From: Candidatus Moraniibacteriota bacterium | GTDB lineage: Bacteria; Patescibacteriota; Minisyncoccia; Moranbacterales; UBA1568 | NCBI GenBank assembly: GCA_963743885.1 | Contig: CAVURJ010000002.1 | Location: forward strand, 36,721 to 100,720 | Direction of reading: 5' to 3' | DNA: 64,000 bases | Part shown: in pieces, positions 2,962 through 39,730 of the stretch | Layout of the letters: each line of letters starts with the position of its first letter | Position numbering within the stretch: position 1 is the stretch's first letter | Notes under the pieces: generated by a model | What the model was told of the DNA's origin: nothing | Seen by the model: only the letters and a program-made list of their open reading frames with translations | Databases searched by the model: none | Made by a program: the position numbers and the translations under genes

Positions 2962-3045
2962 AAGCTAGAGAAAAGCGGAAAATAGATGATGCTAGGCAAT
3001 ATTTCCGTATCCGATACATGATACATACTACGGGATACTTGATAC

Positions 3046-3774
3046 ATGCACATGGAGCTCCGCTACAACGCCGTCATCCTGAAGAAGAAAGAAGTGGGGG
3101 AGACTGACCGTCTCTACACTTTGTATACTTCGAAGCATGGCAAGGTGCAGACGGTAGCGAAAGGCGTGCGCAAGCCGGAGGCCAAGCTCGCGGGTCAGCT
3201 CGAGACGCTCATGCATGGGCTGGTCATTGTGGTGAAGGGGAAGGGCGCGGGCAAGATCGCCGGAGCAGTAGCGGAAAATGTTTTCCCGCATCTTCGGACG
3301 GACGGCGATATTTTGCGGAGGGTCCTCGATACGGTGAACGTCTTCGAGCGTCTCGTCGGATGGGATGAGTCGGATCCGGATCTCTTCCGGCTCCTCTTGG
3401 AGTACCTGCTTCTTGCTGATGGATTGGCAGAAGGGAAGAGGCGCGAAAAGATCGAGCTTCTTTCGGAAGGATTCCTCATGCAGCTCTATGCGCATCTCGG
3501 TTATCGCATCGAGACGGGGACGTGCGCGGTCTCGGGGGAGAAGCTCCGTTCCGGCGAGCAGCACTTCTTCAGTCCGAGCCAGGGTGGGGTGCTCGCGGGC
3601 GGGCATCATCATGGCGATGGCCATACGTTTCCCATCTCCGAGACAGCGATCAAATATATCCGGCTGTTTCTCAATAACCGTCTGGAAAGTCTGGAAAAGG
3701 TCCAGGCGACGGAACGTGAGCTTCGGGAGCTTCGCACGATCTCTTCGCGGTTTTTCCTTTGGATAGAGCGTTAA
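3046..3774 (+). CDS. recO: DNA repair protein RecO
   Basis: N-terminal OB-fold signature 'RLYTLYTSKHGKVQTVAKGVRK' typical of RecO. 242 aa. Confidence 0.65.
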   Translation: MHMELRYNAVILKKKEVGETDRLYTLYTSKHGKVQTVAKGVRKPEAKLAGQLETLMHGLVIVVKGKGAGKIAGAVAENVFPHLRTDGDILRRVLDTVNVFERLVGWDESDPDLFRLLLEYLLLADGLAEGKRREKIELLSEGFLMQLYAHLGYRIETGTCAVSGEKLRSGEQHFFSPSQGGVLAGGHHHGDGHTFPISETAIKYIRLFLNNRLESLEKVQATERELRELRTISSRFFLWIER

Positions 3775-3790
3775 TGTCGCTCTTTGAGCC

Positions 3791-3819
3791 TTGACAAGAT
3801 CTCTGTAGAGGTGTATAAA
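3791..3819 (+). promoter_or_regulatory. Sigma70-like promoter TTGACA-17-TATAAA
   Basis: TTGACA at 3791-3796, 17-nt spacer, TATAAA at 3814-3819. AAAGGAG RBS follows at ~3863. Confidence 0.6.
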
Positions 3820-3878
3820 TAACTTCCTAGTATCTTTACAACCAGCCAGTGAACCGTCGATGAAAGGAGTCTGAAACA

Positions 3879-4904
3879 ATGGGAAATAGGCGTCTTGGAA
3901 TCAAGAACCAAGTCGCGCTTTGGTGGGTATTCGTGATTACTGCTGTCTTCCTGCTGATGAATCTCATGCATGTGCATGAAGATCAACTGCAACCAGCTGG
4001 CGATAAGCCTATCAATCAAAGCGTCCAACCACAACCAATCCAACAAACGCCCGCAAGCACGCAATATGTTGTGCGTCGCGGCGATACCTTGACGAGCCTC
4101 GTGAAGCGTTTCTACAACGGAGATCTTTCCAAGATCGCATCCGTAGCGCAAACGAACCATATCAAGAATCCTGACCTCATTTATGTTGGTCAGACCATCG
4201 TGTTCAGTCACAACTGGACTTCTCCGGAATATGCGAAAGCAAATGCTTCTCCGGAGAAGTTCGCCGTCGTTGGTGGAGCTTCTCGGGACAAGCATATTAC
4301 TACACCTTATTCCGTGAAGCAGCATCGCTCACTGTCGGAAACCCCGACCACTCTCAAGCCTGTTCCTCAGGCAATGGCTACGATTCCGGCGTCGGAAACA
4401 GTAAAACAACCCATCGTAAAAACCTTCTATTCATCTCGACATATCGAAAAGACGGTCCTCGATATACGTGTGCGGTATGGCCATCTCATCGATGCAGCCT
4501 CGAAAATCCACGGTATCGACCCACTCATCATCACTGCCATCATTTACGTCGAATCCAAAGGCAATCCGCGTGCGGAACATCCAGAATCCCATTGTAAGGG
4601 ACTCATGCAACTCGAGGATGGGACGGCAAAGAAGTATGGAGTGACCGACTCCTTCGATCCACGGAAAAACATTTTCGGCGGCACAAAAGTGCTCGCTGAT
4701 TACCTCAACCATCATGCTGGCGGCGACCTCGATCGTGCGTTAGTCTCTTATAATGCCGGGCCTCACTCGAAACTTTTCAAGAAGCCCAGCTTTGATCCTT
4801 CGCGATTTGTGTATGTCCGTCAGGTAAGGGAAGTCTTAAGGGCTATCGACCCTGGCGTAGACGAAGAACGTGTTTTGGTAGGGGGCGGAGAACGATCCTC
4901 TTAG
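3879..4904 (+). CDS. LysM domain + SLT-domain lytic transglycosylase, membrane-anchored
   Basis: N-terminal TM helix. LysM-like 'YVVRRGDTLTSLVKRFY...IKNPDLIYVGQTIVF'. SLT catalytic region 'IIYVESKGNPRAEHPESHCKGLMQL'. Confidence 0.8.
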   Translation: MGNRRLGIKNQVALWWVFVITAVFLLMNLMHVHEDQLQPAGDKPINQSVQPQPIQQTPASTQYVVRRGDTLTSLVKRFYNGDLSKIASVAQTNHIKNPDLIYVGQTIVFSHNWTSPEYAKANASPEKFAVVGGASRDKHITTPYSVKQHRSLSETPTTLKPVPQAMATIPASETVKQPIVKTFYSSRHIEKTVLDIRVRYGHLIDAASKIHGIDPLIITAIIYVESKGNPRAEHPESHCKGLMQLEDGTAKKYGVTDSFDPRKNIFGGTKVLADYLNHHAGGDLDRALVSYNAGPHSKLFKKPSFDPSRFVYVRQVREVLRAIDPGVDEERVLVGGGERSS

Positions 4905-4965
4905 TGTGCAGATATTCTGCATCCGGTCGCGTTCTATTGTAGAATCTTCTGGAAAAATTCCAGGC

Positions 4966-5002
4966 CAAATCCTGCTTGTGCAAACAGCAGGATTTTTTTT
5001 GT
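4966..5002. terminator. Intrinsic terminator
   Basis: Hairpin atcctgct...agcaggat followed by an 8-T run. Confidence 0.7.
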
Positions 5003-5034
5003 TATCAAACGTGATGAATGAGGAAAATGTATAT

Positions 5035-5063
5035 TTGACAAAACATGTAAGAAGGTGTATAAT
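5035..5063 (+). promoter_or_regulatory. Consensus sigma70 promoter TTGACA-17-TATAAT
   Basis: TTGACA 5035-5040, 17-nt spacer, TATAAT 5058-5063. RBS AAGGAAGG immediately before ATG 5101. Confidence 0.7.
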
Positions 5064-5100
5064 ATATTTTCCTAGTAGCTTAAAAAAGGAAGGTGTATAA

Positions 5101-5748
5101 ATGGCTTTATCAAGGGACTTTGTGGCCAGAATGCTTTTTTGGTCGGTTATCGCCGTAGCGGTTCTCATGGCTTTGGGATGCTTTACCCCACGTGAAAACC
5201 GTATCCAGAAGAGCGCTTCTCCGGAGTGGTCTGCTGTAGTAGGTGGGACTTCTCGGGACAAGCAAGCAACAAGTCCCAAGAAATCCCAAGAGCGCCCAGT
5301 CGCTTCTTCCCGTCGCCCGGTAGGTATTAATCGAGGGATCGATTGGCAGGTGGTGGGAATGATTCGCTCACGGTTCGGTTATATCATCCGTGAAGCATCG
5401 GCTACTTACGGAATTCCCGCAACCGTCATCATAGCGATGATTTACGAAGAATCGAAGGGAGACCCGTATGTAATCAGTCCGAAGAATTGCAAGGGGCTGA
5501 TGCAGATCTGCGATAGGACAGCTCAACACTTCAATGTAGGCAATGTCTTCAACCCGCGGGAGAATGTCCTCGGTGGCACGAAAATCCTTTGGGATTATCT
5601 CCACAAGAAGGACGGTGATATCGACAAGGCCTTTTACGCATTTAAGGAAGGCCCGAACGATAAGGCTTTCAAAGACCCATCCTTTGATCCGGCGCAGCAT
5701 CCATATGTGCGCAAGATGAAGGAGACCATCGCGTACCTTTCCGCCTAA
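5101..5748 (+). CDS. SLT-domain lytic transglycosylase (paralog of 3879-4904, lacks LysM)
   Basis: N-terminal TM. Shares the 'AVVGGTSRDK' linker and SLT block 'IIAMIYEESKGDPYVISPKNCKGLMQI' with the upstream gene. Confidence 0.8.
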   Translation: MALSRDFVARMLFWSVIAVAVLMALGCFTPRENRIQKSASPEWSAVVGGTSRDKQATSPKKSQERPVASSRRPVGINRGIDWQVVGMIRSRFGYIIREASATYGIPATVIIAMIYEESKGDPYVISPKNCKGLMQICDRTAQHFNVGNVFNPRENVLGGTKILWDYLHKKDGDIDKAFYAFKEGPNDKAFKDPSFDPAQHPYVRKMKETIAYLSA

Positions 5749-7804: not shown

Positions 7805-9066
7805 TGGCAGGCTGTATACCAAGATTTCGTCTCGAGCCGGTCGTGGGTGCGTATCGTCGAGGTGTGATTGTTACGGCATCGGGAACCATAAAAACGCCTT
7901 TTTTCATGCCGGACGCGACGAGGGCTGCAGTGCGTGGCGTGACGCCGGATGAAATCAGGGCGAGTGGCATTTCGGCGCTCGTCGTGAATACGTATCACCT
8001 CATGTTACAACCTGGCGAAGCGCTGATAAAAAAGGCAGCAGGACCTGCCCGCAATGCTACGCCCGCCAGCAACGCTTTGCGTAGCAATGCGGACTGGTAT
8101 AGCGTTGCAGGCGGGGGGATTCATCAGTTCATGGGCTGGGCTGGTCCGACACTTTCGGATTCTGGCGGATACCAGGTGTATTCGCTTATCCATAGGAATC
8201 CAGAGATGGGTCGGATCACTGAGGATGGCGCTGAGTTCAAGTCGGTCCTCGACGGCTCGAAGCACCTGCTCACGCCGGAGCGAGCGATCCAGATCCAGTT
8301 TGATCTTGGGGTTGATATGATGGTGTGTCTTGATGACCCGCGTCCGAATAGCGCCGGGGAAGCCGAGGTAGCAGAAGCAGTGGAGCGGACACTCCGCTGG
8401 GCGAAGCGTTGCAAAGATGAATATACGAAGCAAGTCACAGAGCGCGGGCTGACCGAAGAGACGAGGCCGCTCCTTTTCGGTGTGGTGCAGGGTGGGATGT
8501 TTGTGGACCTGCGCGAGCATTGCGCGTCAGAGCTTGCGGCGATCGGCTTCGATGGGTACGGTTTCGGTGGACGGCATATCGATGAGGAAGGCGTTTTTCT
8601 CGAGGAGATCGTTGCGAAGACCGCGGCTGCTATCCCGAAGGATGCGCTCCGGTTCGCGCTCGGCATCGGGACGCCGTCAGATATCGTGCGCTGCCACCTT
8701 CTCGGTTGGGACATGTTTGACTGTGTGATACCGACGAGAGAAGGACGGCATGGCCGTTTGTTTGTCATGAATGACAAGCAAACGGAATTTCCAATTTCCA
8801 ATTTCCAATTTCCAAATAATGATCAAAATCTCAATGACCAAAATGAAGAGGGATCTTTCTATCGAACATTGAATATCAATAATGAACAGTACGGCGAGGA
8901 TTTTTCGCCAGTCGATCCGACGTGCGATTGTGAGCTGTGTACGAAGCATACGAGGAGCTATCTCAAGCATCTCTTCAAGGTAGCGGATCCGCTGGCTGGC
9001 CGTCTCGCCTCACTTCATAATCTCCGCTTCTACGCTCGGCTCATGGAGCGGCTGCGCGGAGAATAA
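7801..9066 (+). CDS. tgt: Queuine tRNA-ribosyltransferase (tRNA-guanine transglycosylase), with two in-frame inserted segments
   Basis: 'TPFFMPDATRAAVRGVTPDEI', 'LTDSGGYQV'-like block, Zn site 'CDCELCTKHTRSYLKHL'. Extra segments at nt 8045-8105 and 8786-8850 relative to canonical Tgt. Confidence 0.85.
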   Translation: MMAGCIPRFRLEPVVGAYRRGVIVTASGTIKTPFFMPDATRAAVRGVTPDEIRASGISALVVNTYHLMLQPGEALIKKAAGPARNATPASNALRSNADWYSVAGGGIHQFMGWAGPTLSDSGGYQVYSLIHRNPEMGRITEDGAEFKSVLDGSKHLLTPERAIQIQFDLGVDMMVCLDDPRPNSAGEAEVAEAVERTLRWAKRCKDEYTKQVTERGLTEETRPLLFGVVQGGMFVDLREHCASELAAIGFDGYGFGGRHIDEEGVFLEEIVAKTAAAIPKDALRFALGIGTPSDIVRCHLLGWDMFDCVIPTREGRHGRLFVMNDKQTEFPISNFQFPNNDQNLNDQNEEGSFYRTLNINNEQYGEDFSPVDPTCDCELCTKHTRSYLKHLFKVADPLAGRLASLHNLRFYARLMERLRGE

Positions 9067-10433: not shown

Positions 10434-10441
10434 CCTTACCT

Positions 10442-13087: not shown

Positions 13088-13127
13088 TTCTCTAGATTCA
13101 AGATTCTAAATTCCATATTCTACTAAA

Positions 13128-14396: not shown

Positions 14397-14401
14397 AGCA
14401 C

Positions 14402-14528
14402 CAAATTCAAAATTACAAGCTCCAAATAAATCTTAAACTCAAAATTCAAATTCTTGATCCCAGTTTTGTTTTTTGGATTTGATTATTTTGAAATTATTTG
14501 GAAATTGAGATTTTGAATTTTGGATTTG
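14402..14528. repeat. Interspersed inverted-repeat element, copy A (~125 bp)
   Basis: Left arm CAAATTCAAAATTACAAGCTCCAAATAAATC. Right arm ATTATTTGGAAATTGAGATTTTGAATTTTGGATTTG is its imperfect reverse complement. Conserved internal words TTTGGATTTGA. Exactly fills the gap between the M16 stop and the AI-2E start. Confidence 0.8.
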
Positions 14529-14536
14529 AAAAAGAT

Positions 14537-15562: not shown

Positions 15563-15573
15563 CTACACTAAAT

Positions 15574-15697
15574 CAAAAATTCAAAATTACAAGCTCCAAA
15601 TAAATCTCAAATCATAATTTCAAAACAGAAAACCGGCGATTTTTGGATTTTGAACATTAGAATTTATTTGGAAATTGAGATTTTGAGTTTTGAATTT
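15574..15697. repeat. Interspersed inverted-repeat element, copy B
   Basis: Same arms as copy A (CAAAAATTCAAAATTACAAGCTCCAAATAAATC ... AATTTATTTGGAAATTGAGATTTTGAGTTTTGAATTT). Ends 9 nt before the rsmI ATG. Confidence 0.8.
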
Positions 15698-15706
15698 AAA
15701 ATAGTT

Positions 15707-16382: not shown

Positions 16383-16416
16383 CTGTTAACGGGTTCACGA
16401 GTTAACGGGTTATCGG
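16383..16416. repeat. GTTAACG-module repeat (member of the HpaI-site palindromic family)
   Basis: ctGTTAACGggttcacgaGTTAACGggtt, i.e. tandem units built on the 8-bp palindrome CGTTAACG. Confidence 0.6.
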
Positions 16417-16483
16417 AAAGAAAACCTGGATCCCGGCTCGAAGGCCGGGATGACAGAAAGAGAAGATGTTTTTTGGAAAAATG

Positions 16484-19857: not shown

Positions 19858-19925
19858 GTATCTAGTATCTTGTATTATGTATGGGGGATTTCATACATGA
19901 TACATAATACAGTATACGTAATACG

Positions 19926-21053
19926 ATGCTAGACATTCACGCCCATCTGTACTGGGAGAGCTATGACGCTGATCGCGATGAGATGATCCGGCGCGCTTTC
20001 GACGCGGGTATTGAAAAAATGATCTGCGTGGGGACGGAGCCCGAGGATAATCCGCGCGCCATAGAGGTTGCCGAGAGGTATGAGGGTGTGTATGCTTCCG
20101 TAGGGATACACCCCAGCTTTTTGGATGAGATTGAAAAAGAAGTAGATAGTATATCGAATATCGTATATCGGGACGGATCCGGCATACGACATACGGCATA
20201 CGACATACGGCCGGAGATAATGGAGCGGATCCTGGTGCAGGTAGACAACCTTAAGAGAGTAGCGCAATCTTCGGACAAAGTCATAGCGATCGGAGAGTGC
20301 GGACTGGATTATTATGTGCGCAACGAACAGTCAACAGTTAACAGTGAACAGGGAACAGAAAACAGCGAACAGGGAGTAAAAGAAACAGCGGACGCACCGC
20401 TCAAAAGCGGAACGACCGTTGTTTCTGAAAAACAGAAAGCGATACAGAAAGAGGGGTTTCTGGCGCAGATGGAGGTTGCTCGTGAGCTTGGTGTACCGCT
20501 CATCATCCATACCAGGCCCTCCGCCGGCACTATGGATGCCTACGAGGATCTGTTTCAGATCCTGACTCACAACTTACAACAGACAACGAACAACTCTCCC
20601 ACCCCTCAGTCTCGCGGACTCGACAGCTCCCCTCGGGCAGAGGAGCAGGAACCACAAGCTAACGAATCCGCTAAAAATCACTTATCACTTATCTCTCATC
20701 CCTTATCTTTTGCTATCCTGCACTGCTATCAGGGCGATACCGAAATCACGAAGAAATTTCTCGAATTGCCGAATGTCTATTTCTCATTCGCGGGGAGCAT
20801 CACCTATTCAGTGAAGAAGGCTTTGGTTGGGACGAAAGACGATCCGTCGGAAGTCGTGAAGCTTGTGCCGCTTTCGCGGTTGTTCGTTGAGACTGATGCG
20901 CCGTTTCTGGCCCCGGTGCCGCATCGCGGGGAGCGTAATGAGCCGGCCTATGCCATCGCGACTGCTGAGAAGGTCTGTGAGTTGAAGGGGTGCAGCCGAG
21001 AAGAGCTTGATCAAGCGCTCCGGACGAGCTTTGAGCATGTATTTGACAAATGA
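19926..21053 (+). CDS. tatD: TatD-family metal-dependent nuclease/hydrolase, with low-complexity insertions
   Basis: N-terminal 'MLDIHAHLYWESYD...GIEKMICVGT...YASVGIHP' and C-terminal 'FVETDAPFLAPVPHRGERNEPAYA' TatD signatures. 375 aa against ~255 typical. Insertions at nt ~20170-20215, 20320-20380 and 20570-20700. Confidence 0.8.
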   Translation: MLDIHAHLYWESYDADRDEMIRRAFDAGIEKMICVGTEPEDNPRAIEVAERYEGVYASVGIHPSFLDEIEKEVDSISNIVYRDGSGIRHTAYDIRPEIMERILVQVDNLKRVAQSSDKVIAIGECGLDYYVRNEQSTVNSEQGTENSEQGVKETADAPLKSGTTVVSEKQKAIQKEGFLAQMEVARELGVPLIIHTRPSAGTMDAYEDLFQILTHNLQQTTNNSPTPQSRGLDSSPRAEEQEPQANESAKNHLSLISHPLSFAILHCYQGDTEITKKFLELPNVYFSFAGSITYSVKKALVGTKDDPSEVVKLVPLSRLFVETDAPFLAPVPHRGERNEPAYAIATAEKVCELKGCSREELDQALRTSFEHVFDK

Positions 21054-23095: not shown

Positions 23096-23166
23096 GTTTA
23101 CGGGTTAACGGGCTAACGAGTTAGAAGGTCTATGAACGCGTTAACTCGCAAACTCGTTAACTGGAT
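23096..23166. repeat. GTTAACG-module palindromic repeat (atpB|atpE junction)
   Basis: cgGGTTAACGggctaacgagtt ... aacgCGTTAACtcgcaaactcGTTAACtgg. Left and right halves are reverse complements (aacgagtt/aactcgtt). Confidence 0.6.
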
Positions 23167-23242
23167 AACTGGATTTGGTGGACAGATACGGAAAATCGCT
23201 CTATAATGGTCAAATGTTAGTAAATTAATCAGTTTTAATTAA

Positions 23243-23477: not shown

Positions 23478-23966
23478 ATGGAAGCGCTTGCGAACCTCGG
23501 TATCGATGGCAAGCTGTTCTTGGCTCAGGCAGTCAATTTCCTGATCCTCCTGTTCATTCTGCGCCGTTATGCGTACAAGCCGATGCTCGAGTTTCTCGAG
23601 AAGCGGACGGAGCGTATCGACAAGGGACTTCGGGACGCCGAGGCGGCCCAGGTGAAACTCTCCGAGATGGAAGAGAAGGAGAAGGAAGTATTGAAAGCGG
23701 CTCGCAATGAGGCCAAGACGATGGTGGCTGCCGCTGAAGAATCCGCCAAGAAGCGCGATGCAGAACGATTGGCTGAGACTGAGGCACGTGTGAAGAAGCT
23801 TCTCTTCGATGCTGAGGCGAAGATCGCTGAGGATCGGACGAAGATGCTCGATCAGGCTAAGAGTGAACTTGCAGAGACGGTCGTGCTCGCTGTCGAGAAA
23901 GTCCTTCGTGAGAAAGTAGACATGGCGAAGGAGAGGGAGATGATAGAGAAGACACTGAAGGGGTAA
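23478..23966 (+). CDS. atpF: F0F1 ATP synthase subunit b
   Basis: N-terminal TM followed by a long charged helix. Position between atpE and atpH. Confidence 0.8.
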   Translation: MEALANLGIDGKLFLAQAVNFLILLFILRRYAYKPMLEFLEKRTERIDKGLRDAEAAQVKLSEMEEKEKEVLKAARNEAKTMVAAAEESAKKRDAERLAETEARVKKLLFDAEAKIAEDRTKMLDQAKSELAETVVLAVEKVLREKVDMAKEREMIEKTLKG

Positions 23967-24107
23967 ATTCAAAATTCAAAATTCAAAATTACAAGCTCCA
24001 AATAAATCACAAATTCTAATTTCAAAACCCAGAACAATATAAGTTACATTTGGATTTTGAGTATTGGAATTTATTTGGAAATTGAGATTTTGGATTTGAG
24101 ATTTCAG
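23966..24107. repeat. Interspersed inverted-repeat element, copy C
   Basis: AAATTCAAAATTCAAAATTCAAAATTACAAGCTCCAAATAAATC ... GAATTTATTTGGAAATTGAGATTTTGGATTTGAGATTTCAG, between atpF and atpH. Confidence 0.8.
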
Positions 24108-24125
24108 TCAACTTTCTGAAGAATT

Positions 24126-24527
24126 ATGAGGCTTTCCATAAGACAATATGCGTTGGCGCTCCTCGATATCGAGCAGGGGATGAGTGCTGATGAGGCGAAG
24201 GGAGCCGGAGAGCGATTTGCTCTCTGGCTTTCGCGCCGTGGAGAAGGACGGAAGCTTGCGAAGATCGTAGCGGAAGCGGAAACGATCGCTCGGGATCGGA
24301 GCAATAAGACGGAGGTCGCGATCACGACGGCATTCGAAGCTGATCAGGAGACGAGGGGGATCCTCACGGGATATGCGGAGAAGTTGTTTCCTGGTAAGCA
24401 TATCGAAGCTGAGTTCCGATCCGATCGGGATATCATTGGTGGTATGACGATACGGAGCAGCGAGACGCTGTATGACGGATCGCTCGCCGCCTCGGTGAAA
24501 AAGCTGCGCACAAGTCTCATGAGGTGA
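24126..24527 (+). CDS. atpH: F0F1 ATP synthase subunit delta (short form)
   Basis: OSCP-like C-terminal 'IGGMTIRSSETLYDGSLAASVKKL'. 133 aa. Operon position. Confidence 0.7.
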   Translation: MRLSIRQYALALLDIEQGMSADEAKGAGERFALWLSRRGEGRKLAKIVAEAETIARDRSNKTEVAITTAFEADQETRGILTGYAEKLFPGKHIEAEFRSDRDIIGGMTIRSSETLYDGSLAASVKKLRTSLMR

Positions 24528-24650
24528 TTTAAGATTTTGGATTTAGGATTTAGGAATAGGATCGTCCAAGCCTCCATTCTTGAATCATAAATCTTAAATC
24601 GTGAATCAGATTCTAAATTCTAAATTCTAGATTCTAAATTCAATCGTATG
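24527..24650. repeat. AT-rich heptad tandem-repeat tract (ATTCTAA/ATTCTAG units)
   Basis: gattctaaattctaaattctagattctaaattc plus ggatttaggatttagga. 7-bp period. Lies in the atpH|atpA gap. Confidence 0.6.
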
Positions 24651-26149: not shown

Positions 26150-26214
26150 ATTAACGGGTTAACGCGTTAACGAGTTGTATTTCTAACACGTTAACTCGCA
26201 AAACTCGTTAACTG
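26150..26214. repeat. GTTAACG-module palindromic repeat (atpA|atpG junction)
   Basis: attaacgGGTTAACGCGTTAACGAGTTg ... cacGTTAACtcgcaaaactcGTTAACtgg. Confidence 0.6.
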
Positions 26215-26229: not shown

Positions 26230-27150
26230 ATGGCATCTGCACGAGACATCCGAAGGCGCATCAAAGGCGTGAAATCCACGGGTAAGATCACCCGAGCCAT
26301 GGAGATGATTTCGGCTGTCAAAATGCGCAAGGCAGTGCAGGCAGTACTGGCTATCCGTCCGTATGCGGAGAGTGCTATCGAGCTTTTGAAGCGGCTCAAG
26401 GTCGCTGTCGGAAGCGAGAAGCACCCGCTTCTTACGGTGCGGCCGATCAAGAAAGAGCTCTATGTGATCATCACTTCGAATCGTGGATTGTGCGGAGCGT
26501 TCAATGCACAGATTGCGAAGAAAGTGCGCCAGGCGCTCAAAGAAGATGCGGATCGCGAGAAATGTTTCATCACGATCGGTAAGAAGGGGGATGCGTCGGT
26601 CCGCCGATCAGGTGGCGATATCATCGCGTCGTTTCCGGATGTACTCGGAGCACCGAATGCTGAGACGATGCGTCCTATCGCGCGTGTCATCATGGATGAA
26701 TTCGCTTCAGGCCGCGTAGACCGTGTCGTCATGATCTATACCGACTATGTATCCGTGATGCTCCAGCAGGTGAAGGTGCGCGCGCTGCTTCCGGTCAGGC
26801 TCGAAGATACGCAGAAGGCGATGCATGAAATGCAACCAACGACTGACGACGGACGACTGATGACAGAAGAGGGGAAGGGGAAGATTCCGGCGGAGTATGC
26901 GATTGAACCGTCGCCCGCGACCGTGCTCGACCGGATGGTGCCGCGACTCATCGAGATGGAGCTCTATCATGCGATACTCGAGAGCAATGCATCCCAGGAA
27001 GCAGCCCGTATGATGGCGATGCGTAATGCGACCGATGCTGCCAAGGAGATGTCTGCTGATTTGACGCTCGCCTACAACCAGCTCCGCCAGCAGAAGATCA
27101 CGCAAGAGATCGCCGAGCTGTCGGCAGGTATGGCAGCTGTCTCGCGTTAG
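26230..27150 (+). CDS. atpG: F0F1 ATP synthase subunit gamma
   Basis: 'IRRRIKGVKSTGKITRAMEMISAVKMRKA' N-terminus and conserved C-terminal helix 'ITQEIAELSAG'. Confidence 0.85.
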   Translation: MASARDIRRRIKGVKSTGKITRAMEMISAVKMRKAVQAVLAIRPYAESAIELLKRLKVAVGSEKHPLLTVRPIKKELYVIITSNRGLCGAFNAQIAKKVRQALKEDADREKCFITIGKKGDASVRRSGGDIIASFPDVLGAPNAETMRPIARVIMDEFASGRVDRVVMIYTDYVSVMLQQVKVRALLPVRLEDTQKAMHEMQPTTDDGRLMTEEGKGKIPAEYAIEPSPATVLDRMVPRLIEMELYHAILESNASQEAARMMAMRNATDAAKEMSADLTLAYNQLRQQKITQEIAELSAGMAAVSR

Positions 27151-27220: not shown

Positions 27221-27745
27221 ATGAAGAAGACAGCAAAAAATCTGGTAGTGATTCCGAGTGAGCGCATCATCAAGCGTATTTTCTGGCTGCGTGATGAGAA
27301 GGTAATGCTGGATTCTGATTTGGCAGAAATGTATGAGGTAGAAACGAAAGTTTTCAATCAGGCCGTGAAACGCAATATCGATCGATTCCCGAAAGACTTT
27401 ATGTTTCAGCTTACCGTGCAAGAGTATTCAATCTTGAAGTCACAAATTGTGACCTCAAGTTGGGGAGGAAAAAGAAAACTCCCATATGCTTTTACTGAGC
27501 CGGGTGTGGCGATGCTTTCGAGCGTACTCAAGAGCAAGCGGGCAGTTGCAGTGAATATCCAGATTATCCGGACATTTGTCGAGCTGAGAAAGATGCTCGT
27601 AACACATGAGGCGCTTAGGAAGAAGATCGAAGCAATGGAGCAGAAATATGACAAGCGGTTCAGAGCGGTATTTGATGTATTGCGTCAGCTCCTGAAGGAA
27701 GAGACGGAGCCGAAGAAGAAGATAGGGTTTGCTGCGAAGAAGTGA
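27221..27745 (+). CDS. ORF6N-domain protein (KilA-N-related DNA-binding family), inserted in the atp operon
   Basis: 'EKVMLDSDLAEMYEVETKVFNQAVKRNIDRFPKDFMFQLT...SQIVTSSWGGKRKLPYAFTEPGVAMLSSVLKS' matches the ORF6N domain pattern. No good SD. Confidence 0.65.
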   Translation: MKKTAKNLVVIPSERIIKRIFWLRDEKVMLDSDLAEMYEVETKVFNQAVKRNIDRFPKDFMFQLTVQEYSILKSQIVTSSWGGKRKLPYAFTEPGVAMLSSVLKSKRAVAVNIQIIRTFVELRKMLVTHEALRKKIEAMEQKYDKRFRAVFDVLRQLLKEETEPKKKIGFAAKK

Positions 27746-27830
27746 AGCTGGAATTTTGAATCTGGAATCTTGGAGTTCAAAACCAAAATTCTAGATTCTA
27801 AATTCGAGATTCGGATTTAGGAAGTTGTTT
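27745..27830. repeat. AT-rich heptad tandem-repeat tract
   Basis: ggaattttgaatctggaatcttgg...aattctagattctaaattcgagattcggatttagg. 7-bp period, same unit family as 24527-24650. Confidence 0.55.
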
Positions 27831-27835
27831 GGAAA

Positions 27836-27878
27836 AAAGAAAAGCCCCGGCGCGGTTGCGACAGGGCAGGTGTTCGGA
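27836..27878 (-). terminator. Terminator module AAAAAAGAAAAGCCCCGGCGCGGTTG... (minus-strand orientation)
   Basis: On minus: GC-rich hairpin followed by TTTTCTTTTTT. A near-identical ~30-bp module recurs at 34205-34240. Confidence 0.5.
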
Positions 27879-27889
27879 TGATGAAGGCC

Positions 27890-28120
27890 TCAGTCGATGA
27901 CAATCACGAGATCGTTCGGCTTGATAATGCAGAAACCTCCTGTGCCACGAAGATACCCTGCATTGTAGCCGTCGTCATCGGTGGTGAGTTTCTGAAGGAG
28001 CGGGACGACCCCACCTCGCTCGAGATCTGCGATGCAGATGAACTTGGTATGGGAAGGAACCTCAGAAAAACGATGAGCCCTTCTGAAGGTAACTACGAGG
28101 TTGAAGTTAGTGAGTGGCAT
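27890..28120 (-). CDS. Hypothetical small protein, 76 aa (orphan, divergent from the operon)
   Basis: AGGAG 9 nt upstream of the ATG on minus. Shared terminator module downstream. No recognisable family. Confidence 0.45.
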   Translation of the reverse strand: MPLTNFNLVVTFRRAHRFSEVPSHTKFICIADLERGGVVPLLQKLTTDDDGYNAGYLRGTGGFCIIKPNDLVIVID

Positions 28121-28264
28121 GCTCGGCTCCTATATGCGTCTTGGGTTGGTAAGAGTGCGACTGCTCATACTGGTATAAAAACGAAAAAAAGTCAATCCCA
28201 GTTACATGCGGATATGTAACGGGACAAGTATCTCATAACGTAATTAATCAAGATTTTTCCTTAA

Positions 28265-29665: not shown

Positions 29666-29687
29666 TTACTGTTGTTTGGTTAACGAG

Positions 29688-29740
29688 TTTGGCGAGTTAA
29701 CGAGTTGAAAAACCCGTGAACCCGTTAACGCGTTAACGGA
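29688..29740. repeat. GTTAACG-module palindromic repeat (atpD|atpC junction)
   Basis: gGTTAACGAGTTtggcgaGTTAACGAGTTgaaaaacccgtgaacccGTTAACGCGTTAACGg. Confidence 0.6.
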
Positions 29741-31238: not shown

Positions 31239-34145
31239 ATGGCTCAAAAAAACTACAATCCGAAGGCAATCGAGGCGAAGTGGCAGAAGTATTGGGAGAA
31301 GCATGGTACGTATCGTCAGTATAGCCGCAAGCAGGGCTTCTATGTGCTCGATATGTTCCCGTATCCGTCGGGAGCAGGACTCCATGTCGGTCATCCGCGC
31401 GGATATATTGCGACGGATGTTGTGGCGCGCTTCAAGCAGCTTGAGGGTTGCGGTGTGCTCCATCCGATGGGATGGGACGCGTTCGGGTTGCCAGCTGAAC
31501 AGTATGCTCTCAAGAACAAGGTGCATCCGTCGATCGCGACCAAGAAGAATGTCGCGACGTTCAAGAAGCAATTGGAGAAGATCGGTCTCACCTATGATTG
31601 GGAGCGCGAGATCAATACGACCGATCCGGAATATTATAAGTGGACACAGTGGATCTTCCTAGAGATGTGGAAGCGGGGCTTGGCATACGAATCGAACGAA
31701 CCGATCAATTGGTGCCCGTCATGCAAGACCGGTCTTGCCAATGAGGATTTGGAGCAGGGGAAGTGCGAGCGTTGCGGGACAGTCGTCGAGAAGCGGCCAC
31801 TCCGCCAGTGGGTGCTTGCCATGACCAAGTATGCTGACCGGTTGCTCAAGGATCTCGATAGTAAGGACCTTGATTGGAGCGAGTCGATCAAGGAACAGCA
31901 GCGTAATTGGATCGGACGGAGCGAAGGTGCTGAGGTTGCCTTTCCGATTGTCGGGACCGAAGAAGAGCTCCGCGTGTATACAACGCGCGTCGATACGATT
32001 TTCGGGTGTACGTACGTCGTGGTCGCGCCTGAGCATTCTTTGCTGAAGAATCAAGAATCAAGAATCAAGAATCAAGAGGAAGTCAGAAAGTATATAAAGA
32101 AGGCGGCGAACAAGTCTGATCTTGAGAGGACGGAACTGGCGAAAGAGAAGACCGGCGTGAAGCTCGAGGGTGTCGAGGCGATCAACCCATTCGATGGGGC
32201 GAAGGTCCCGGTGTATGTCGCGGACTATGTGCTCGGTTCCTACGGTACAGGCGCGGTGATGGCGGTCCCGGCGCATGATGAGCGCGATTTTGAGTTTGCG
32301 AAGAAATATAGTTTGCCGATCAAGCTTTCAGTGGCGCCGTTTTTTTCTGACACAGAAGGTAAAGATGCTGTACGAAAAGACAAGCCGACGGTGCGACGGC
32401 GGACCGCTTATGCGCTCGTCAAGCATTGGAGCGAGGACAAATATATTTGCCTGGATTGGGAGAAATTCGGATGGCATTCGGGGATCATCGGTGGCATCGA
32501 AGAAGGCGAGGACCCGATTGTGGCGGCTTCTCGTGAAATTATAGAAGAGACTGGCTATCAGAATCCGGTATTTGTAAAGTATATCGGGGAAGCGATGCAC
32601 AATTATTTTTATGCCGCTCACAAGGAAGTGAACCGTTATGCGGATGGTGTTGGGATGCTGTTTCAATTGAAGAACGGTAAATGGAACGAGCCAGACAAAG
32701 AAGAAACAAAAAACCATAAGGCAGTCTGGATTTCTGGCGACGAGATGACATCATTCCTTACACTGAGAAACTTCCAATATATGTGGGAAGTCTTGAAAAA
32801 GGGAGAGGAGTGCTATACAGAAGACGGGGTACTCATCGATTCTGGAGAGTTCACTGGGCTTGCGTCGGCAGAGGCAAGGAAGAAGATGACAGCATGGCTC
32901 TCGAAGGAGAAACTTGGCAAGAAGAAGGTGAACTACAAGATGCGTGATTGGACGTTTAGTCGGCAGCGCTATTGGGGCGAGCCGATCCCGCTCGTACATT
33001 GTGAGTTCTGTGGCATCGTGCCGGTGCCGGAGAAAGACCTTCCGCTTCTTCTTCCAAAGGTGAAGTCGTATGAGCCGACCGATACGGGCGAATCGCCGCT
33101 TGCGGCTATCTCGAAGTGGGTGAATACCAAGTGCCCGCAGTGCAAGGGGCCGGCCAAGCGCGAGACCAATACCATGCCGCAGTGGGCGGGTTCGAGCTGG
33201 TACTATCTTCGCTATATCGATCCGAAGAACAAGAAGGCTCTTGTCGACAAGAAGAAGGAGCAGAAGATGATGCCGGTTGATCTCTATGTCGGCGGGACGG
33301 AGCATGCGACAAGACACCTTCTCTATGCACGTTTTTGGCACAAGTTCCTCTATGATATCAAGATCGTCTCTGGCAAGGAGCCGTTCAAGAAGCTCGTGAA
33401 CCAGGGGCTTATCGTGGCATCTGATGGCCGTAAGATGAGCAAGCGCTGGGGCAACGTGGTCAATCCAGACGATATGATCGCAGAGTTCGGGGCGGACGCA
33501 TTCCGTACCTATGAGATGTTCATGGGGCCTTTTACACAGTCGATTGCCTGGAATACCGAAGGTCTTGTCGGGACGCGGCGGTTCCTTGAGAAAGTCTGGA
33601 GACTTTCTCAGAAAACAGTTAACAGTCAACAATCAACGGGGAATAAGAATATTGAGACGTTGCTTCATAAGACAATCAAGAGCGTGACAGAAGATATTGA
33701 AGGATTCAAGTTCAATACAGCGATTAGTTCGCTCATGATTCTTGTGAACGCCCTCGAAAAAGAGCCAGAAATATCACTCATCACTTATCGGACATCTCTT
33801 ATCCTCTTAAGTCCGTTCGCCCCGCATATCGCGGAAGAGCTGTGGTCGCAATTGAAGAATCACCCTTCGACAGGCTCAGGGTCATCCAAAACGGAAGAGA
33901 AATCAATATTCCTTGCTGAGTGGCCGAAGTGGGACAAGAAGAAAATCGTTGAGGAGACGGTGAATGTCGCCGTACAGGTGAATGGTAAGGTGCGCGCTGT
34001 GATCGCGGTCGCCGCTGGAAGCGATGAGGCTGCTGTGAAGGCGCAGGCGCTCGCCGATGCGAACGTACAGACACATATCGCCGGTAAGAACGTCCGTAAG
34101 GTAATCTACGTTCCTGGACGAATCTTCAATATCGTTGTGGGATAA
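31239..34145 (+). CDS. leuS: Leucyl-tRNA synthetase carrying an in-frame inserted NUDIX hydrolase domain
   Basis: 'PYPSGAGLHVGHPRGY' HIGH region, 'TTRVDTIFGCTYVVVAPEH' editing-domain T-rich region, 'KMSKRWGNVV' KMSKS. About 163 aa inserted between 'YSLPIKLSV' and 'DGVLIDSGEFTGL' contains a perfect Nudix box 'GGIEEGEDPIVAASREIIEETGY'. Confidence 0.9.
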   Translation: MAQKNYNPKAIEAKWQKYWEKHGTYRQYSRKQGFYVLDMFPYPSGAGLHVGHPRGYIATDVVARFKQLEGCGVLHPMGWDAFGLPAEQYALKNKVHPSIATKKNVATFKKQLEKIGLTYDWEREINTTDPEYYKWTQWIFLEMWKRGLAYESNEPINWCPSCKTGLANEDLEQGKCERCGTVVEKRPLRQWVLAMTKYADRLLKDLDSKDLDWSESIKEQQRNWIGRSEGAEVAFPIVGTEEELRVYTTRVDTIFGCTYVVVAPEHSLLKNQESRIKNQEEVRKYIKKAANKSDLERTELAKEKTGVKLEGVEAINPFDGAKVPVYVADYVLGSYGTGAVMAVPAHDERDFEFAKKYSLPIKLSVAPFFSDTEGKDAVRKDKPTVRRRTAYALVKHWSEDKYICLDWEKFGWHSGIIGGIEEGEDPIVAASREIIEETGYQNPVFVKYIGEAMHNYFYAAHKEVNRYADGVGMLFQLKNGKWNEPDKEETKNHKAVWISGDEMTSFLTLRNFQYMWEVLKKGEECYTEDGVLIDSGEFTGLASAEARKKMTAWLSKEKLGKKKVNYKMRDWTFSRQRYWGEPIPLVHCEFCGIVPVPEKDLPLLLPKVKSYEPTDTGESPLAAISKWVNTKCPQCKGPAKRETNTMPQWAGSSWYYLRYIDPKNKKALVDKKKEQKMMPVDLYVGGTEHATRHLLYARFWHKFLYDIKIVSGKEPFKKLVNQGLIVASDGRKMSKRWGNVVNPDDMIAEFGADAFRTYEMFMGPFTQSIAWNTEGLVGTRRFLEKVWRLSQKTVNSQQSTGNKNIETLLHKTIKSVTEDIEGFKFNTAISSLMILVNALEKEPEISLITYRTSLILLSPFAPHIAEELWSQLKNHPSTGSGSSKTEEKSIFLAEWPKWDKKKIVEETVNVAVQVNGKVRAVIAVAAGSDEAAVKAQALADANVQTHIAGKNVRKVIYVPGRIFNIVVG

Positions 34146-36197: not shown

Positions 36198-36198
36198 A

Positions 36199-36321
36199 GT
36201 TCAAAATTCAAAATAACAAGCTCCAAATAAATTCAAAAACATAATTTTCAAAACGTGAGATCTTATTTTGATTTTGATATTATGATTTATTTGGAAATTG
36301 AGATTTTGAATTTGTAATTTG
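36199..36321. repeat. Interspersed inverted-repeat element, copy D
   Basis: GTTCAAAATTCAAAATAACAAGCTCCAAATAAATTC ... GATTTATTTGGAAATTGAGATTTTGAATTTGTAATTTG. Ends 9 nt before the uppP ATG. Confidence 0.8.
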
Positions 36322-36329
36322 TCTCTCTT

Positions 36330-37097: not shown

Positions 37098-37102
37098 GGC
37101 TT

Positions 37103-37180
37103 GTCATCCTGAGCGAAGCGAAGGATCTCGTTTTGAGATGTTGCTTCGGGATTCCTCGTTACGCTCGGAATGACATGAAA
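37103..37180. repeat. Imperfect long inverted repeat / hairpin between uppP and folD
   Basis: TTGTCATCCTGAGCGAAGCGAAGGATC ... GATTCCTCGTTACGCTCGGAATGACATG. The arms are partially complementary. Function unknown. Confidence 0.4.
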
Positions 37181-37185
37181 CACTT

Positions 37186-38025: not shown

Positions 38026-38049
38026 AGTTAAAAGTTCATCAAGTTTATA

Positions 38050-38083
38050 AAGAAAAAAAACAGCGTTAGAGCGCTGTTTTTTC
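38050..38083. terminator. Bidirectional intrinsic terminator
   Basis: aaaaaaaacagcgttagagcgctgttttttc. Can serve folD (+) and tRNA-Leu (-). Confidence 0.75.
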
Positions 38084-38100
38084 TATGGTGCCGGGAGAGA

Positions 38101-38120
38101 CCTGCCTGCCGGCAGGCAGG
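38101..38120. repeat. Perfect 20-bp palindrome CCTGCCTGCCGGCAGGCAGG (3' side of tRNA-Leu)
   Basis: Self-complementary. A near-identical copy CCTGCCTACCGGCAGGCAGG sits at 38245-38264 on the other side of the tRNA. Confidence 0.7.
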
Positions 38121-38140
38121 GACTCGAATTGTTTCTTTTG

Positions 38141-38223
38141 TGGGCGAGGAGAGACTTGAACTCTCACGCTGTTGCCAGCATTGGATTTTGAGTCCAACGT
38201 GTCTACCATTCCACCACTCGCCC
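38141..38223 (-). tRNA. tRNA-Leu (anticodon CAA), class II with long variable arm; CCA not encoded
   Basis: Minus-strand read GGGCGAG..GTGG..TTGGA-CTCAAAA-TCCAA-[16-nt variable arm]-GAGAG-TTCAAGT-CTCTC-CTCGCCC-A. 7/7 acceptor stem, T-loop TTCAAGT, anticodon loop with U33 and A37. 83 nt. Confidence 0.8.
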
Positions 38224-38359
38224 TATTTTTTCCGCGTGTCTACCCCTGCCTACCGGCAGGCAGGATTCCACCCGCCTCGCATCGATAAAAGCGAAGCGAG
38301 TCGAGGCGGGCCATCCCGGCCTTTTTCTTGGCTTGAAGGCACAGGGGAAGCATAGGAAA

Positions 38360-38388
38360 TTGATAAGAGCCTGTCAATGGGCTATACT
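38360..38388 (+). promoter_or_regulatory. Promoter TTGATA-17-TATACT upstream of parA
   Basis: -35 38360-38365, 17-nt spacer, -10 38383-38388. Confidence 0.5.
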
Positions 38389-38497
38389 AGGGGAAGAATT
38401 ATGAATCAGGAATAGTGAATCAAGATAAAAACCATAGGTTTTTGTTTTTGGTGTATTTGTTCTTGATTCTTGATTCTAAATTCTTGATTCTTGGGAA
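38380..38497. repeat. AT-rich heptad repeat tract (AATCAAG / TTCTTGA units) upstream of parA
   Basis: gaatcaggaatagtgaatcaag ... ttcttgattcttgattctaaattcttgattcttggg. Confidence 0.55.
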
Positions 38498-39289
38498 ATG
38501 GCTAAGATAATCGGTTTCGTCAATCAGAAGGGGGGCGTCGGAAAGACGACTTCTACGATCAATGTCGCTACCTATCTCGCCGAGGCTGGCAAGAAGGTGC
38601 TTTTGGTTGACCTTGATCCACAGGGTAATGCTTCGTCTGGTCTTGGCATCGATGCTCGGGCACTCGAGAAGAATCTGTATCATGCGATGATTTTGGGGCT
38701 TCCACCGCAGGAGATTATCCTACGTACGGAGACTGAGAATCTGCATATCATTCCGGCAGCGCAGGATTTGGCTGGAGCGGAGATCGAGATGGTGCATATT
38801 GATAGCCGCGAGTTTCGATTGCATAGCGTGCTTCGACAGGTGCGCGCGTATTATGATTACATTCTTATCGATAGTCCGCCGTCGCTCGGCCTCCTTACTA
38901 TCAATGGCCTGGTCGCATCTGATGAAGTGATCATCCCGGTGCAGACGGAGTACTATGCGCTTGAAGGTCTGTCGCAGCTTTTGGGGACGATTGAGCTCGT
39001 GCGTGAGCACTTGCAGCCGAATCTCAAGATCGGTGGTGCACTGCTTACTCTGTATGACCGCCGCAATCGTTTGGCGCGCCAGGTAGTGAATGAAGTGCGG
39101 ACGCATTTTCCTGGGCCAGTGTTTGAGAACGTCGTTCCGCGTTCGGTCCGGCTCGCGGAAGCGCCGAGCTATGGCAAGTCGATTCTCGATTTTGATGCTT
39201 TTTCCAAAGGTGCCCGTGCGTACAAGGGTGTGGTGCGTGAGTTGATTGCTCGGGAAGAAGAGGATAAGAAGAAACTCAAAGTCCTTTGA
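38498..39289 (+). CDS. parA: ParA/Soj chromosome-partitioning ATPase
   Basis: Deviant Walker A 'NQKGGVGKTTSTINVA', 'LLVDLDPQGNAS'. Confidence 0.9.
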   Translation: MAKIIGFVNQKGGVGKTTSTINVATYLAEAGKKVLLVDLDPQGNASSGLGIDARALEKNLYHAMILGLPPQEIILRTETENLHIIPAAQDLAGAEIEMVHIDSREFRLHSVLRQVRAYYDYILIDSPPSLGLLTINGLVASDEVIIPVQTEYYALEGLSQLLGTIELVREHLQPNLKIGGALLTLYDRRNRLARQVVNEVRTHFPGPVFENVVPRSVRLAEAPSYGKSILDFDAFSKGARAYKGVVRELIAREEEDKKKLKVL

Positions 39290-39298
39290 GTTTCTTCG

Positions 39299-39721
39299 GA
39301 ATCAAGAATTGAGAATCATGAATCAAGATAAGAAGACAATCAAATCATTTACGGACCTTGAAGCATGGAAAGAAGGGCACAAGCTTGTTATTCTTGTATA
39401 TAAGGAAACAGAATCATTTCCGCAGAAAGAGATTTTTGCACTGACGAATCAGATGAGGAGATGTGTCGTTTCTATAACATCGAACATCGCAGAGGGTTTT
39501 AGTAGACAATCATACAAAGAAAAAGTGCAGTTTTATTCTATGGCCCTTGGGTCGTTGACTGAATTGCAGAATCAGTTGCTTATTGCGAGAGACGTCGGAT
39601 TTTTGAATAAGGAGAAGTTTAAGCAATTGGCTGATCAGAGCGTTGTTGCACATAAGATTTTGGGTGGATTAGTAAAAAAGTCGAAGGCATATCGCGATTC
39701 TTGATTTTCAATTCTTGATTC
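39299..39721 (+). mobile_element. Putative mini-cassette: four-helix-bundle gene bounded by 19-bp terminal inverted repeats, inserted between parA and parB
   Basis: Left GAATCAAGAATTGAGAATC (39299-39317). Right GATTTTCAATTCTTGATTC (39703-39721), whose revcomp matches the left at 18/19. The repeats abut the start and stop codons of the enclosed gene. Confidence 0.45.
39318..39704 (+). CDS. Four-helix-bundle protein (23S rRNA intervening-sequence protein family)
   Basis: 'FTDLEAWKEGHKLVILVYKET.SFPQKEIFALTNQMRRCVVSITSNIAEGFSRQSYKEKVQFYSMALGSLTELQNQLLIA' matches the PF05635-type pattern. Confidence 0.75.
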   Translation: MNQDKKTIKSFTDLEAWKEGHKLVILVYKETESFPQKEIFALTNQMRRCVVSITSNIAEGFSRQSYKEKVQFYSMALGSLTELQNQLLIARDVGFLNKEKFKQLADQSVVAHKILGGLVKKSKAYRDS

Positions 39722-39730
39722 TTGTATCTT

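Follow-up and report, generated by a model that had tools for sequence, protein, structure and literature searches.

The stretch of DNA analysed here, referred to below as the window, comprises 64,000 nucleotides of contig CAVURJ010000002.1 and carries many tandem arrays of seven-nucleotide (heptamer) units, which lie both between its genes and inside them. The gene map obtained by Pfam annotation was compact and nearly unidirectional, running through the 3' part of ileS, recO, tgt, metG, tatD, the atp operon, leuS, uppP, folD, parA and parB and closing with two giant surface-protein genes. The closest relatives of its LeuS were found in Patescibacteria, mostly Candidatus Moraniibacteriota metagenome-assembled genomes with up to 74% identity, and judged from this similarity the window genome is that of a Moranbacteria-like member of Patescibacteria (also called the candidate phyla radiation, CPR). 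Gene order is common to the window and L027, L031, L034, L037, L049 and L021 (related genomes are given by L numbers), and orthologous spacers were therefore comparable. Spacer lengths on short Logan contigs of run ERR12035942, recognised by exact-protein matches, were those of the window.

The initial annotation of this DNA had claimed pervasive heptad-periodic repeats of several unrelated unit families, and Tandem Repeats Finder (TRF) returned a period-7 array at every coordinate it named. Further arrays were called at 554-582, 20151-20170, 20325-20372, 20677-20707, 24526-24555, 26839-26857 and 33614-33637. With a strict definition (at least four copies, at least 80% self-identity, window 1-41600), 14 arrays had period 7, compared to 0.0 in 30 dinucleotide-preserving shuffles, while periods 6 and 8-21 gave 0-1 array each; the claimed excess at period 7 is thus well beyond chance. 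Within open reading frames (ORFs), only lags 7 and 14 rose above codon-shuffled controls. A looser threshold gave 25 arrays, all inside 1-41653, so that "pervasive" applies throughout that part and not to 41654-64000, where the giant surface-protein ORFs were without heptamer arrays even at this threshold. Likewise, seven is the dominant period and not the only one, as an 8-nt family (GTTAACGN / NCGTTAAC) coexists with it. The earlier in-frame readings of the arrays in leuS (KNQESRIKNQE) and tgt (FPISNFQFPN, in the frame of the 7801 start) were correct.

The repeats were not confined to the window; confinement to it would have spoken against the claim. The same count was made in stretches around LeuS homologues:

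64 CPR-like loci, 979 kb: period 7, 95 arrays observed (0.6 in shuffles); period 6, 7; period 8, 8; period 9, 2
16 Verrucomicrobia/Brevinematales loci, 255 kb: period 7, 2 arrays observed (0.0 in shuffles); period 6, 4; period 8, 1; period 9, 0

The 95 arrays of the CPR-like loci, compared to two in the controls, make the preference for seven a property of the lineage and not of the window alone. On the LeuS-sense strand the units are composed of A (43%), T (30%), C (14.5%) and G (12%), with background values of 30, 28, 19 and 23.5%. When optimally rotated they share a weak AAAATTC-like consensus with an information content of 4.73 of 14 bits, compared to 4.15 +/- 0.09 for shuffled units.

Heptamer arrays and hairpins between genes

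Non-coding DNA makes up 13.5% of the total and holds 15 of the 25 arrays (binomial p = 8e-8). When all spacers were read they proved to be of two kinds, ordinary-looking ones with promoter- or terminator-like sites and stop-to-start spacers filled by arrays. The latter separate co-directional genes, and their arrays stop 4-20 nt short of the start codon that follows. Most intergenic arrays consist of an array and its inverted complement, that is, a leader or intercistronic hairpin, which the initial annotation had missed. Such paired arrays folded with z = -2.9 to -5.3 relative to 200 dinucleotide shuffles, as given with the features below.

3007-3048 (+): GATACAT x5 array (TRF 3013-3048, 5.1 copies), ending at the recO start codon (3046), without a significant fold
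13088-13127 (+): ATTCTAR/ATTCAAG units (TRF 13091-13122) forming the entire spacer from a PII-like gene to the M16 peptidase gene; a lone array, z = +0.24
19858-19925 (+): hairpin of inverted arrays (GTATCTN)x3.6 and (NATACAT)x4.6 (TRF 19893-19924), adjoining the tatD ATG on its upstream side, z = -4.3
23096-23174 (+): period-8 hairpin of GTTAACGN and NCGTTAAC arrays in the atpB-atpE spacer
24528-24647 (+): atpH-atpA spacer, GGATTTA array paired with AAATCTT/ATTCTAA arrays (TRF ATTCTAA x4.6 at 24610-24641), ending 4 nt before the ATG, z = -2.9
27746-27817 (+): hairpin of GAATCTG and ATTCTAG arrays (TRF 27788-27817), 3' of an inserted ORF6N gene, z = -3.7
38394-38494 (+): parA leader hairpin, GAATCAG/GAATAGT/GAATCAA against (TTCTTGA)x4.9 (TRF 38460-38493), ending 4 nt before the ATG, z = -5.3
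39290-39327 (+): heptads of GAATCAA type between parA and a gene of the 23S_rRNA_IVP family (IVP gene), continuing into the IVP start
39696-39732 (+): heptads of ATTCTTG type between the IVP gene and parB (TRF 39696-39724), continuing into the parB start

These spacers turn over between relatives. In the syntenic relatives the orthologous spacers measured either 2-17 nt or 40-165 nt, the longer ones holding an array hairpin whose unit differed from genome to genome; array gain, replacement and length-neutral change were all seen in comparisons between species. The only hairpin common to orthologous spacers was the octamer hairpin between atpA and atpG, present in the window and in L027 (4557-4634). 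The RNaseT-uppP spacer of L027 is filled by the unit family that forms the tatD-upstream hairpin of the window. The period-8 family occurs elsewhere at approximately 16384-16420, at 26151-26213 (atpA-atpG) and at 29679-29737; its hairpins occupy three spacers of the atp operon and one position after a methylase gene, and the unit core is the palindrome GTTAAC.

The parA leader offered the clearest view of what is retained. A promoter-like site, TTGATA-17-TATACT (38360-38388 in the window, with the hairpin beginning about 6 nt past it), was kept in five genomes, and in four of the five it was followed by a complementary heptamer-array hairpin built from different units (GAATCAA, NACGCTN, GGAATNN and GAACAGG; z = -2.2 to -7.1), L049 being without one. 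At this leader the presence of a hairpin and the complementarity of its arms recur, and the sequence does not. Downstream, the IVP gene that has heptad arrays on both sides is absent between parA and parB in L027, L031, L037 and L049; it is one of two genes in the window for 23S_rRNA_IVP / bAvd-like four-helix-bundle proteins (39318-39704 and 61891-62250). No convincing match to a canonical parS was found. At another junction, an ORF6N/Rha-like gene and a 113-aa ORF (27221-28219) lie between atpG and atpD and split the atp operon, and relatives have other insertions or none at this position.

Several possible functions of the intergenic arrays were considered and set aside. Shine-Dalgarno (SD) complementarity, evaluated at all window start codons, was weak or absent 5' of most genes whether or not arrays were present, and leaders with and without arrays were alike (p = 0.28), which does not favour the arrays as a replacement for the SD site. 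Stop codons in three frames as a translational barrier were not favoured either, with stop-containing units in 10 of 16 intergenic arrays compared to 9.9 expected. Among known RNA families, Rfam matched only tRNA-Leu, both at the gathering threshold and at E <= 1. Compensatory change was sought between L031 and L034, whose spacers are 92% identical and for this reason contain too few differences to judge compensation.

Arrays inside leuS and other housekeeping genes

Ten of the 25 arrays of the looser set sit in variable loops of housekeeping genes:

554-583 (+): AACAGYY x4.3 array in the ileS 3' part, containing the unit CAACAGT, which is like that of the cyanobacterial short tandemly repeated repetitive sequence (STRR) 3
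8783-8819 (+): perfect AATTTCC array of 4.3-5.3 copies (TRF 8786-8815, 4.3 copies, 100% matches) in a tgt insertion of about 30 aa (residues 324-356 relative to PDB 5n6f)
20141-20212 (+): tatD insertion 1, ATATCGN array followed by a partly complementary CATACGR array (TRF CATACGA x3.9 at 20183-20209)
20324-20375 (+): tatD insertion 2, GAACAGN x7
20565-20707 (+): tatD insertion 3, ACAACNN array and ATCACTT array
26835-26867 (+): ACGACKG array of 4.7 copies in an atpG variable loop
32042-32081 (+): leuS site 2, AAGAATC x4.6 (TRF 32046-32077, 100% matches) in the canonical 14-codon segment after APEH
33609-33638 (+): leuS site 3 (residues ~790-800), AACAGTN x3.4; L027 has GAATATC x4 at the same site

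The most telling host gene was leuS, which across the CPR loci contained 38 of the 95 arrays at a density of 1.86 per 10 kb, compared to 0.74 outside it. These arrays cluster at five or six sites, mainly residues 230-242, 267-297, 665-677, 800-816 and 855-891, with units that differ between genomes. At site 1, AATTTCC arrays were found in three lineages within a canonical 17-residue segment, on the conserved K-F-P-I codons AAATTTCCAATT, which already hold a 7-nt proto-repeat; arrays have thus arisen recurrently where a proto-repeat exists.

At site 2, the array of the window encodes ...SLLKNQESRIKNQEE... within the 42-nt segment after APEH, which is 14 codons long in 29 CPR genomes. In these genomes the segment had a mean lag-7 identity of 0.534, compared to 0.24-0.35 at other lags and to a lag-7 identity of 0.255 in the homologous segment of 16 control genomes. 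In register, nearly all of its units fit T-Y-N-N-R-A-A, and positions 2-5 are homogenised within each genome (TCAAGAA x4 in the window, TCTCGAA x3 in L032 and L033, TCTCAAA x3 in L039, TAGCCAN x4 in L075). The seemingly "conserved" LeuS peptide motifs KSQISNY and KNLESRI are translations of such heptamer arrays.

A second case came from an RlmN-like gene of L043, L007 and L002, which are about 90% identical. All three carry an array of equal length made of a different unit in each (AAAATCT, AAATTAC and AAATTTC), so that the local peptide is wholly different between identical flanks. Together with LeuS site 2, this indicates that the arrays evolve in concert at constant length. That some coding arrays take the place of other sequence at unchanged length had likewise escaped the initial annotation. 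Unit-by-unit slippage alone cannot yield such fixed-length concerted arrays in an essential gene without frameshift intermediates. In L043 (21150-21420) and L007 (15710-15980) this RlmN-like radical-SAM gene has about 32 aa inserted in frame as a hairpin of left array, spacer and right array; in L002 (20740-21010) it has the left array only.

TatD comprises 375 aa, compared to 272-297 aa in relatives, and has three array-bearing insertions relative to PDB 2gzx; translated in the frame of the 7801 start, the array in tgt gives E-F-P-I-S-N-F-Q-F-P-N. Within tatD, the sequence AATCACT TATCACT TATCTCT (20676-20700) matches the WATCACW heptad recognised by the protein omega; this is its sole tandem occurrence and lies inside a coding gene, and the match is therefore probably a coincidence. 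LeuS residues 368-522 (32340-32805) form an insertion of about 155 residues with a Nudix-box-like motif, GGIEEGEDPIVAASREIIEETGY, that is absent from the closest relative L027.

In the array-free part of the window, 41654-61802 holds an internally repetitive ORF of 5212 aa and, after it, the gene of an FG-GAP protein of 1492 aa, which contains 225-nt tandem repeats at 58471-59893 and 60248-61369. GC content there is higher (0.55-0.60) and GC skew is flat.

A dispersed 125-bp palindromic element

One hairpin family is present in several copies, as a 125-bp element with heptamer-built arms:

14397-14536 (+): copy 1, filling the M16 to AI-2E spacer
15563-15706 (+): copy 2
23967-24125 (+): copy 3, atpF to atpH spacer, with an AAATTCA array at 23965-23990 (TRF)
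36198-36329 (+): copy 4, RNaseT to uppP spacer, z = -3.5
14505-14527, 15675-15697 and 24082-24104: right arms of TTGAATT type (TRF)

The cores of the four window copies are invariant and all lie on the + strand. The left arm is heptamer-phased as AAGCACC AAATTCA AAATTAC AAGCTCC AAATAAA and the right arm as TTATTTG GGATTTG TAATTTT GAATTTG GTGCTT; in copy 1 they read AAATTCA AAATTAC AAGCTCC AAATAAA and TTATTTG GAAATTG AGATTTT GAATTTT. CAAA in the left arm and TTTG in the right are conserved at every seven columns, and the arms pair in 80% of cells, compared to 52-56% after a slide by one column. A search of public metagenomes with the left-arm 17-mer ACAAGCTCCAAATAAAT returned at least 120 contigs; among the matches listed, a matching right arm followed on at least 50 contigs of 31-50% GC, and the element was oriented 18 versus 15 with respect to flanking ORFs.

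This balance of orientations argues against a strand-specific RNA motif, which had been suggested by the uniform sense orientation of the window copies and by G-U pairs favouring the + strand. RNAalifold gave no consensus structure for the element, covariation was weak (18-42 of 500 shuffles reached the observed values), and the element had no Rfam family match. It shares terminal inverted repeats and multiple dispersed copies with MITEs (miniature inverted-repeat transposable elements), traits that hold for this element only. Sequence flanking the four window copies showed no shared target-site duplication, and the copies have no sharp ends, their arms grading into further heptamers; no transposase was found among the Pfam-annotated genes of the window. 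In our reading it is a palindromic DNA element that has become dispersed and has neither recognisable ends nor target duplications. A heptamer-built palindromic element so widespread in metagenomes appears to be new.

Palindromes of other kinds were also seen. In the metagenome copies L081, L185, L143 and L197, small G+C-rich palindromes such as CCGCCAGCTGGCGG are nested in the loop or arms, which suggests that small elements insert into one another. Other G+C-rich palindromic families of the window lie at 8043-8098, in frame inside tgt (an insertion at residues 80-105); at 37098-37185, filling the uppP-folD spacer (GTCATCCTGAGCGAAGCGAAGGATC ... GGAATGAC), with similar sequences in L008 and L037; and as a pair, 38090-38121 and 38244-38275, flanking tRNA-Leu.

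Known heptamer systems and the origin of the arrays

Mazel et al. are said to have described the STRR units CCCCAGT, TTGGTCA and CAACAGT in 1990. The window resembles the cyanobacterial STRR in having several heptamer families per genome, and its NAACAGT family (three sites, 554, 20324 and 33609) matches the reported STRR3 unit CAACAGT; these CAACAGT-like arrays were the only published heptamers present in the window, where no arrays of CCCCAGT, TTGGTCA, TAACTGA, GGGAATC or GGGGATT were found. It differs from the STRR in that the units of STRR1 and STRR2 form no arrays, in its host, which lies outside the cyanobacteria, and in its arrays, which are shorter (3-7 copies) and often inverted pairs. 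The heptamers of Calothrix PCC 7601 are STRR of heterocystous cyanobacteria (PMC4692102).

According to passages in two later papers (PMC4679880, PMC4692102), the survey of Mrazek, Guo and Shah (2007) found heptanucleotides to be the most abundant long simple-sequence repeats (LSSR) of most repeat-rich prokaryote genomes and proposed polymerase slippage as the cause, seven nucleotides being the length of DNA in contact with the polymerase. As relayed there, both the excess and the slippage explanation were published in 2007, and the core idea is therefore not new. As described in these passages, the LSSR share with our arrays above-chance 7-nt tandem units, a period of 7 favoured over its neighbours, many unrelated units and a mainly intergenic location; compared to what is reported there, our arrays differ in their CPR/Patescibacteria host, in the many arrays within essential ORFs and in the fixed-length concerted behaviour of some. 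The TAACTGA repeats of marine Beggiatoaceae, some Cyanobacteria and Bacteroidetes (PMC4679880) likewise form 2-6-copy arrays a few nucleotides before starts in leaders without SD sites, with some arrays in ORFs and no functional pattern among downstream genes, but that system has a single dominant unit with related heptamers rare, whereas here there are more than ten units, mostly in hairpin pairs; TAACTGA itself does not occur on either strand of the window. The GGGAATC/GGGGATT repeats of Xanthomonas and Nostoc (PMC4692102) are also intergenic, include some nearby inverted pairs and vary at each site in length and sequence between related species; they are G-rich and quadruplex-forming, unlike the A/T-rich, 12% G units described here.

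The hairpins further resemble repetitive extragenic palindromes and bacterial interspersed mosaic elements (REP/BIME), the Correia/NEMIS MITEs and Rickettsia palindromic elements (RPE) in being multi-copy imperfect palindromes between co-directional genes, in both orientations. RPE insert in frame into protein genes, as do hairpins here. All these small dispersed palindromes differ from the present elements, which lack target-site duplications and sharp ends and whose arms are themselves heptamer arrays. The palindrome of REP/BIME is G+C-rich, 20-40 bp long and marked by a GTAG or CGTC tag (PMC3733652), whereas the elements here are A/T-rich, 70-140 nt long and without either tag. Lastly, contiguous heptads are the binding sites of omega, a ribbon-helix-helix (RHH) protein that serves plasmid pSM19035 as its ParB (PMC9499535). 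The operators/parS of omega resemble the parA region in that a parA-type gene is preceded by at least four contiguous repeats of 7 bp in direct and inverted orientation, but rely on one consensus heptad with a dedicated reader (PMC9499535), whereas the window has many units and a ParB of helix-turn-helix type. Our literature searches returned no work linking heptamer repeats or small palindromic elements with Patescibacteria. The occurrence in this lineage, the density of arrays at recurrent sites of essential ORFs and the fixed-length concerted arrays appear to be new.

Our favoured reading, to which we give a probability of roughly 0.55, is that mutation generates the arrays in a preferred register of 7 nt and that selection then filters them. 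A common generating mechanism was one of three explanations offered in the initial annotation, and it best fits a single period that recurs in more than ten unrelated units, in spacers and essential ORFs alike and across the whole lineage. The generator would be replication or repair in which a strand slips or is transiently misaligned while being copied, the favoured offset being one step of 7 nt. A misaligned loop that is retained would add or remove a unit; a strand that realigns, with only the mismatches fixed, would leave neighbouring units alike at unchanged length; and a strand switch would place an inverted second array beside the first. Arrays survive in 5' leaders and between the stop and start codons of operon genes, mostly as hairpins of about 25-55 bp ending a few nucleotides before the start, where a 5'-terminal or intercistronic stem-loop may stabilise the mRNA or mark a processing site. 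They also survive in weakly constrained surface loops of housekeeping proteins, there only in frame-preserving states (fixed length or whole in-frame insertions). One hairpin family, the 125-bp element, has become a dispersed palindromic element in many CPR genomes.

Several observations weigh against this reading. The octamer family shows the same architecture, and the 7-nt register is therefore preferred and not absolute. As SD sites are weak genome-wide, their weakness does not single out the array leaders. Homogenising at 7 nt within an essential ORF requires either lethal frameshift intermediates or, as we would suppose, a conversion-type process. Full replacement of arrays between genomes about 90% identical, together with the wide spread of the 125-bp element, fits mobility better than slippage in place, and units of such biased composition with a weak consensus could reflect a reader or selection instead of mutation.

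The mobility option, also raised in the initial annotation, holds that a small palindromic non-autonomous family (MITE-, REP- or RPE-like) inserts at gene junctions and in frame, the periodicity being a property of its arms. The 125-bp element supports it, with its dispersed copies, pairing arms and the two orientations expected of a DNA element, as do orthologous spacers, in which some relatives have nothing and others carry differing elements, the recurrence of the tatD-upstream unit family in the RNaseT-uppP spacer of L027, and the in-frame hairpin insertions in the RlmN-like gene, tatD and tgt. Most arrays are nevertheless single-copy with unique units, the length-neutral LeuS segment and concerted fixed-length change cannot be insertions, and neither sharp ends, target-site duplications nor a transposase was found in the window, so that mobility accounts for the 125-bp element and is doubtful as an explanation of the arrays at large. 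The third proposal, a common reader at 7-bp pitch, fared worse. A protein binding consecutive sites at 7-nt pitch, on DNA in the manner of omega (or of MetJ on 8-bp met boxes) or on RNA through cold-shock/S1-type OB folds contacting 6-7 nt each, would regulate translation or transcription, and would suit arrays that end just before start codons, the four or more contiguous heptads, direct and inverted, that lie upstream of parA and on either side of parB in the arrangement required by omega (PMC9499535), an SD-poor genome like the Beggiatoaceae with TAACTGA leaders (PMC4679880), the A/T-rich, G-poor units with their weak consensus and the operator-like GTTAAC core of the octamers. At least ten unit families in 42 kb of a typically small genome, a parA leader heptamer that is different in every relative, arrays in leuS, tgt, tatD, ileS and atpG at sites unrelated to regulation, and SD strength that is alike with and without arrays all speak against it; a Pfam scan of 40 products, all but two small ORFs and the giant ORF, identified no RHH, cold-shock or S1 gene. 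A single sequence-specific reader is thus unlikely.

Two further explanations carry little weight. Phase-variable contingency loci, in which copy-number changes of a unit that is not a multiple of three toggle genes, would be consistent with arrays in ORFs and just 5' of starts. The ORFs concerned (leuS, ileS, tgt, tatD, atpG) are single-copy housekeeping genes and all intact, the large surface-protein genes at 41654-61802 are free of arrays, and the site-2 array of LeuS comprises exactly six units in 29 genomes, which makes phase variation highly improbable. Protein-level selection could in principle apply, since three passes of translation through a 7-nt unit yield a peptide repeat of seven residues and the encoded peptides are hydrophilic and loop-like, as could plain low-complexity composition. 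However, most arrays are non-coding, and the repeats are identical at all codon positions with period 7, not 21; dinucleotide and codon shuffles gave approximately zero and the homologous LeuS segment of control genomes had no lag-7 signal, which together refute this reading.

We tentatively consider a further reading, of low probability, in which Patescibacteria of this group possess a templated copy-correction with a fixed 7-nt offset that continually overwrites weakly constrained DNA without changing its length. If so, this process would rewrite loops of essential enzymes in concert within each lineage, as in the LeuS APEH segment and the RlmN-like array of L002, L007 and L043, and would also build the complementary arms of leader hairpins. 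Unlike length-changing slippage, it would be an intrinsic source of local diversity in protein and RNA that leaves length unaltered.

The question of why heptanucleotides dominate dates from the cyanobacterial STRR, and the sole proposal has been the 7-nt contact length of the polymerase. The genomes described here offer a favourable test system, being small and dense in arrays, with fixed-length ones in single-copy essential genes; a change of one or two units in those genes would be lethal, which separates length-changing slippage from length-neutral conversion. Phyletic patterns of repair and replication genes in heptamer-rich compared to heptamer-poor Patescibacteria could name the responsible enzyme. 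For the organisms themselves, conserved enzymes gain lineage-specific peptide segments from the arrays, and operon junctions filled with hairpins are likely to affect mRNA fate.

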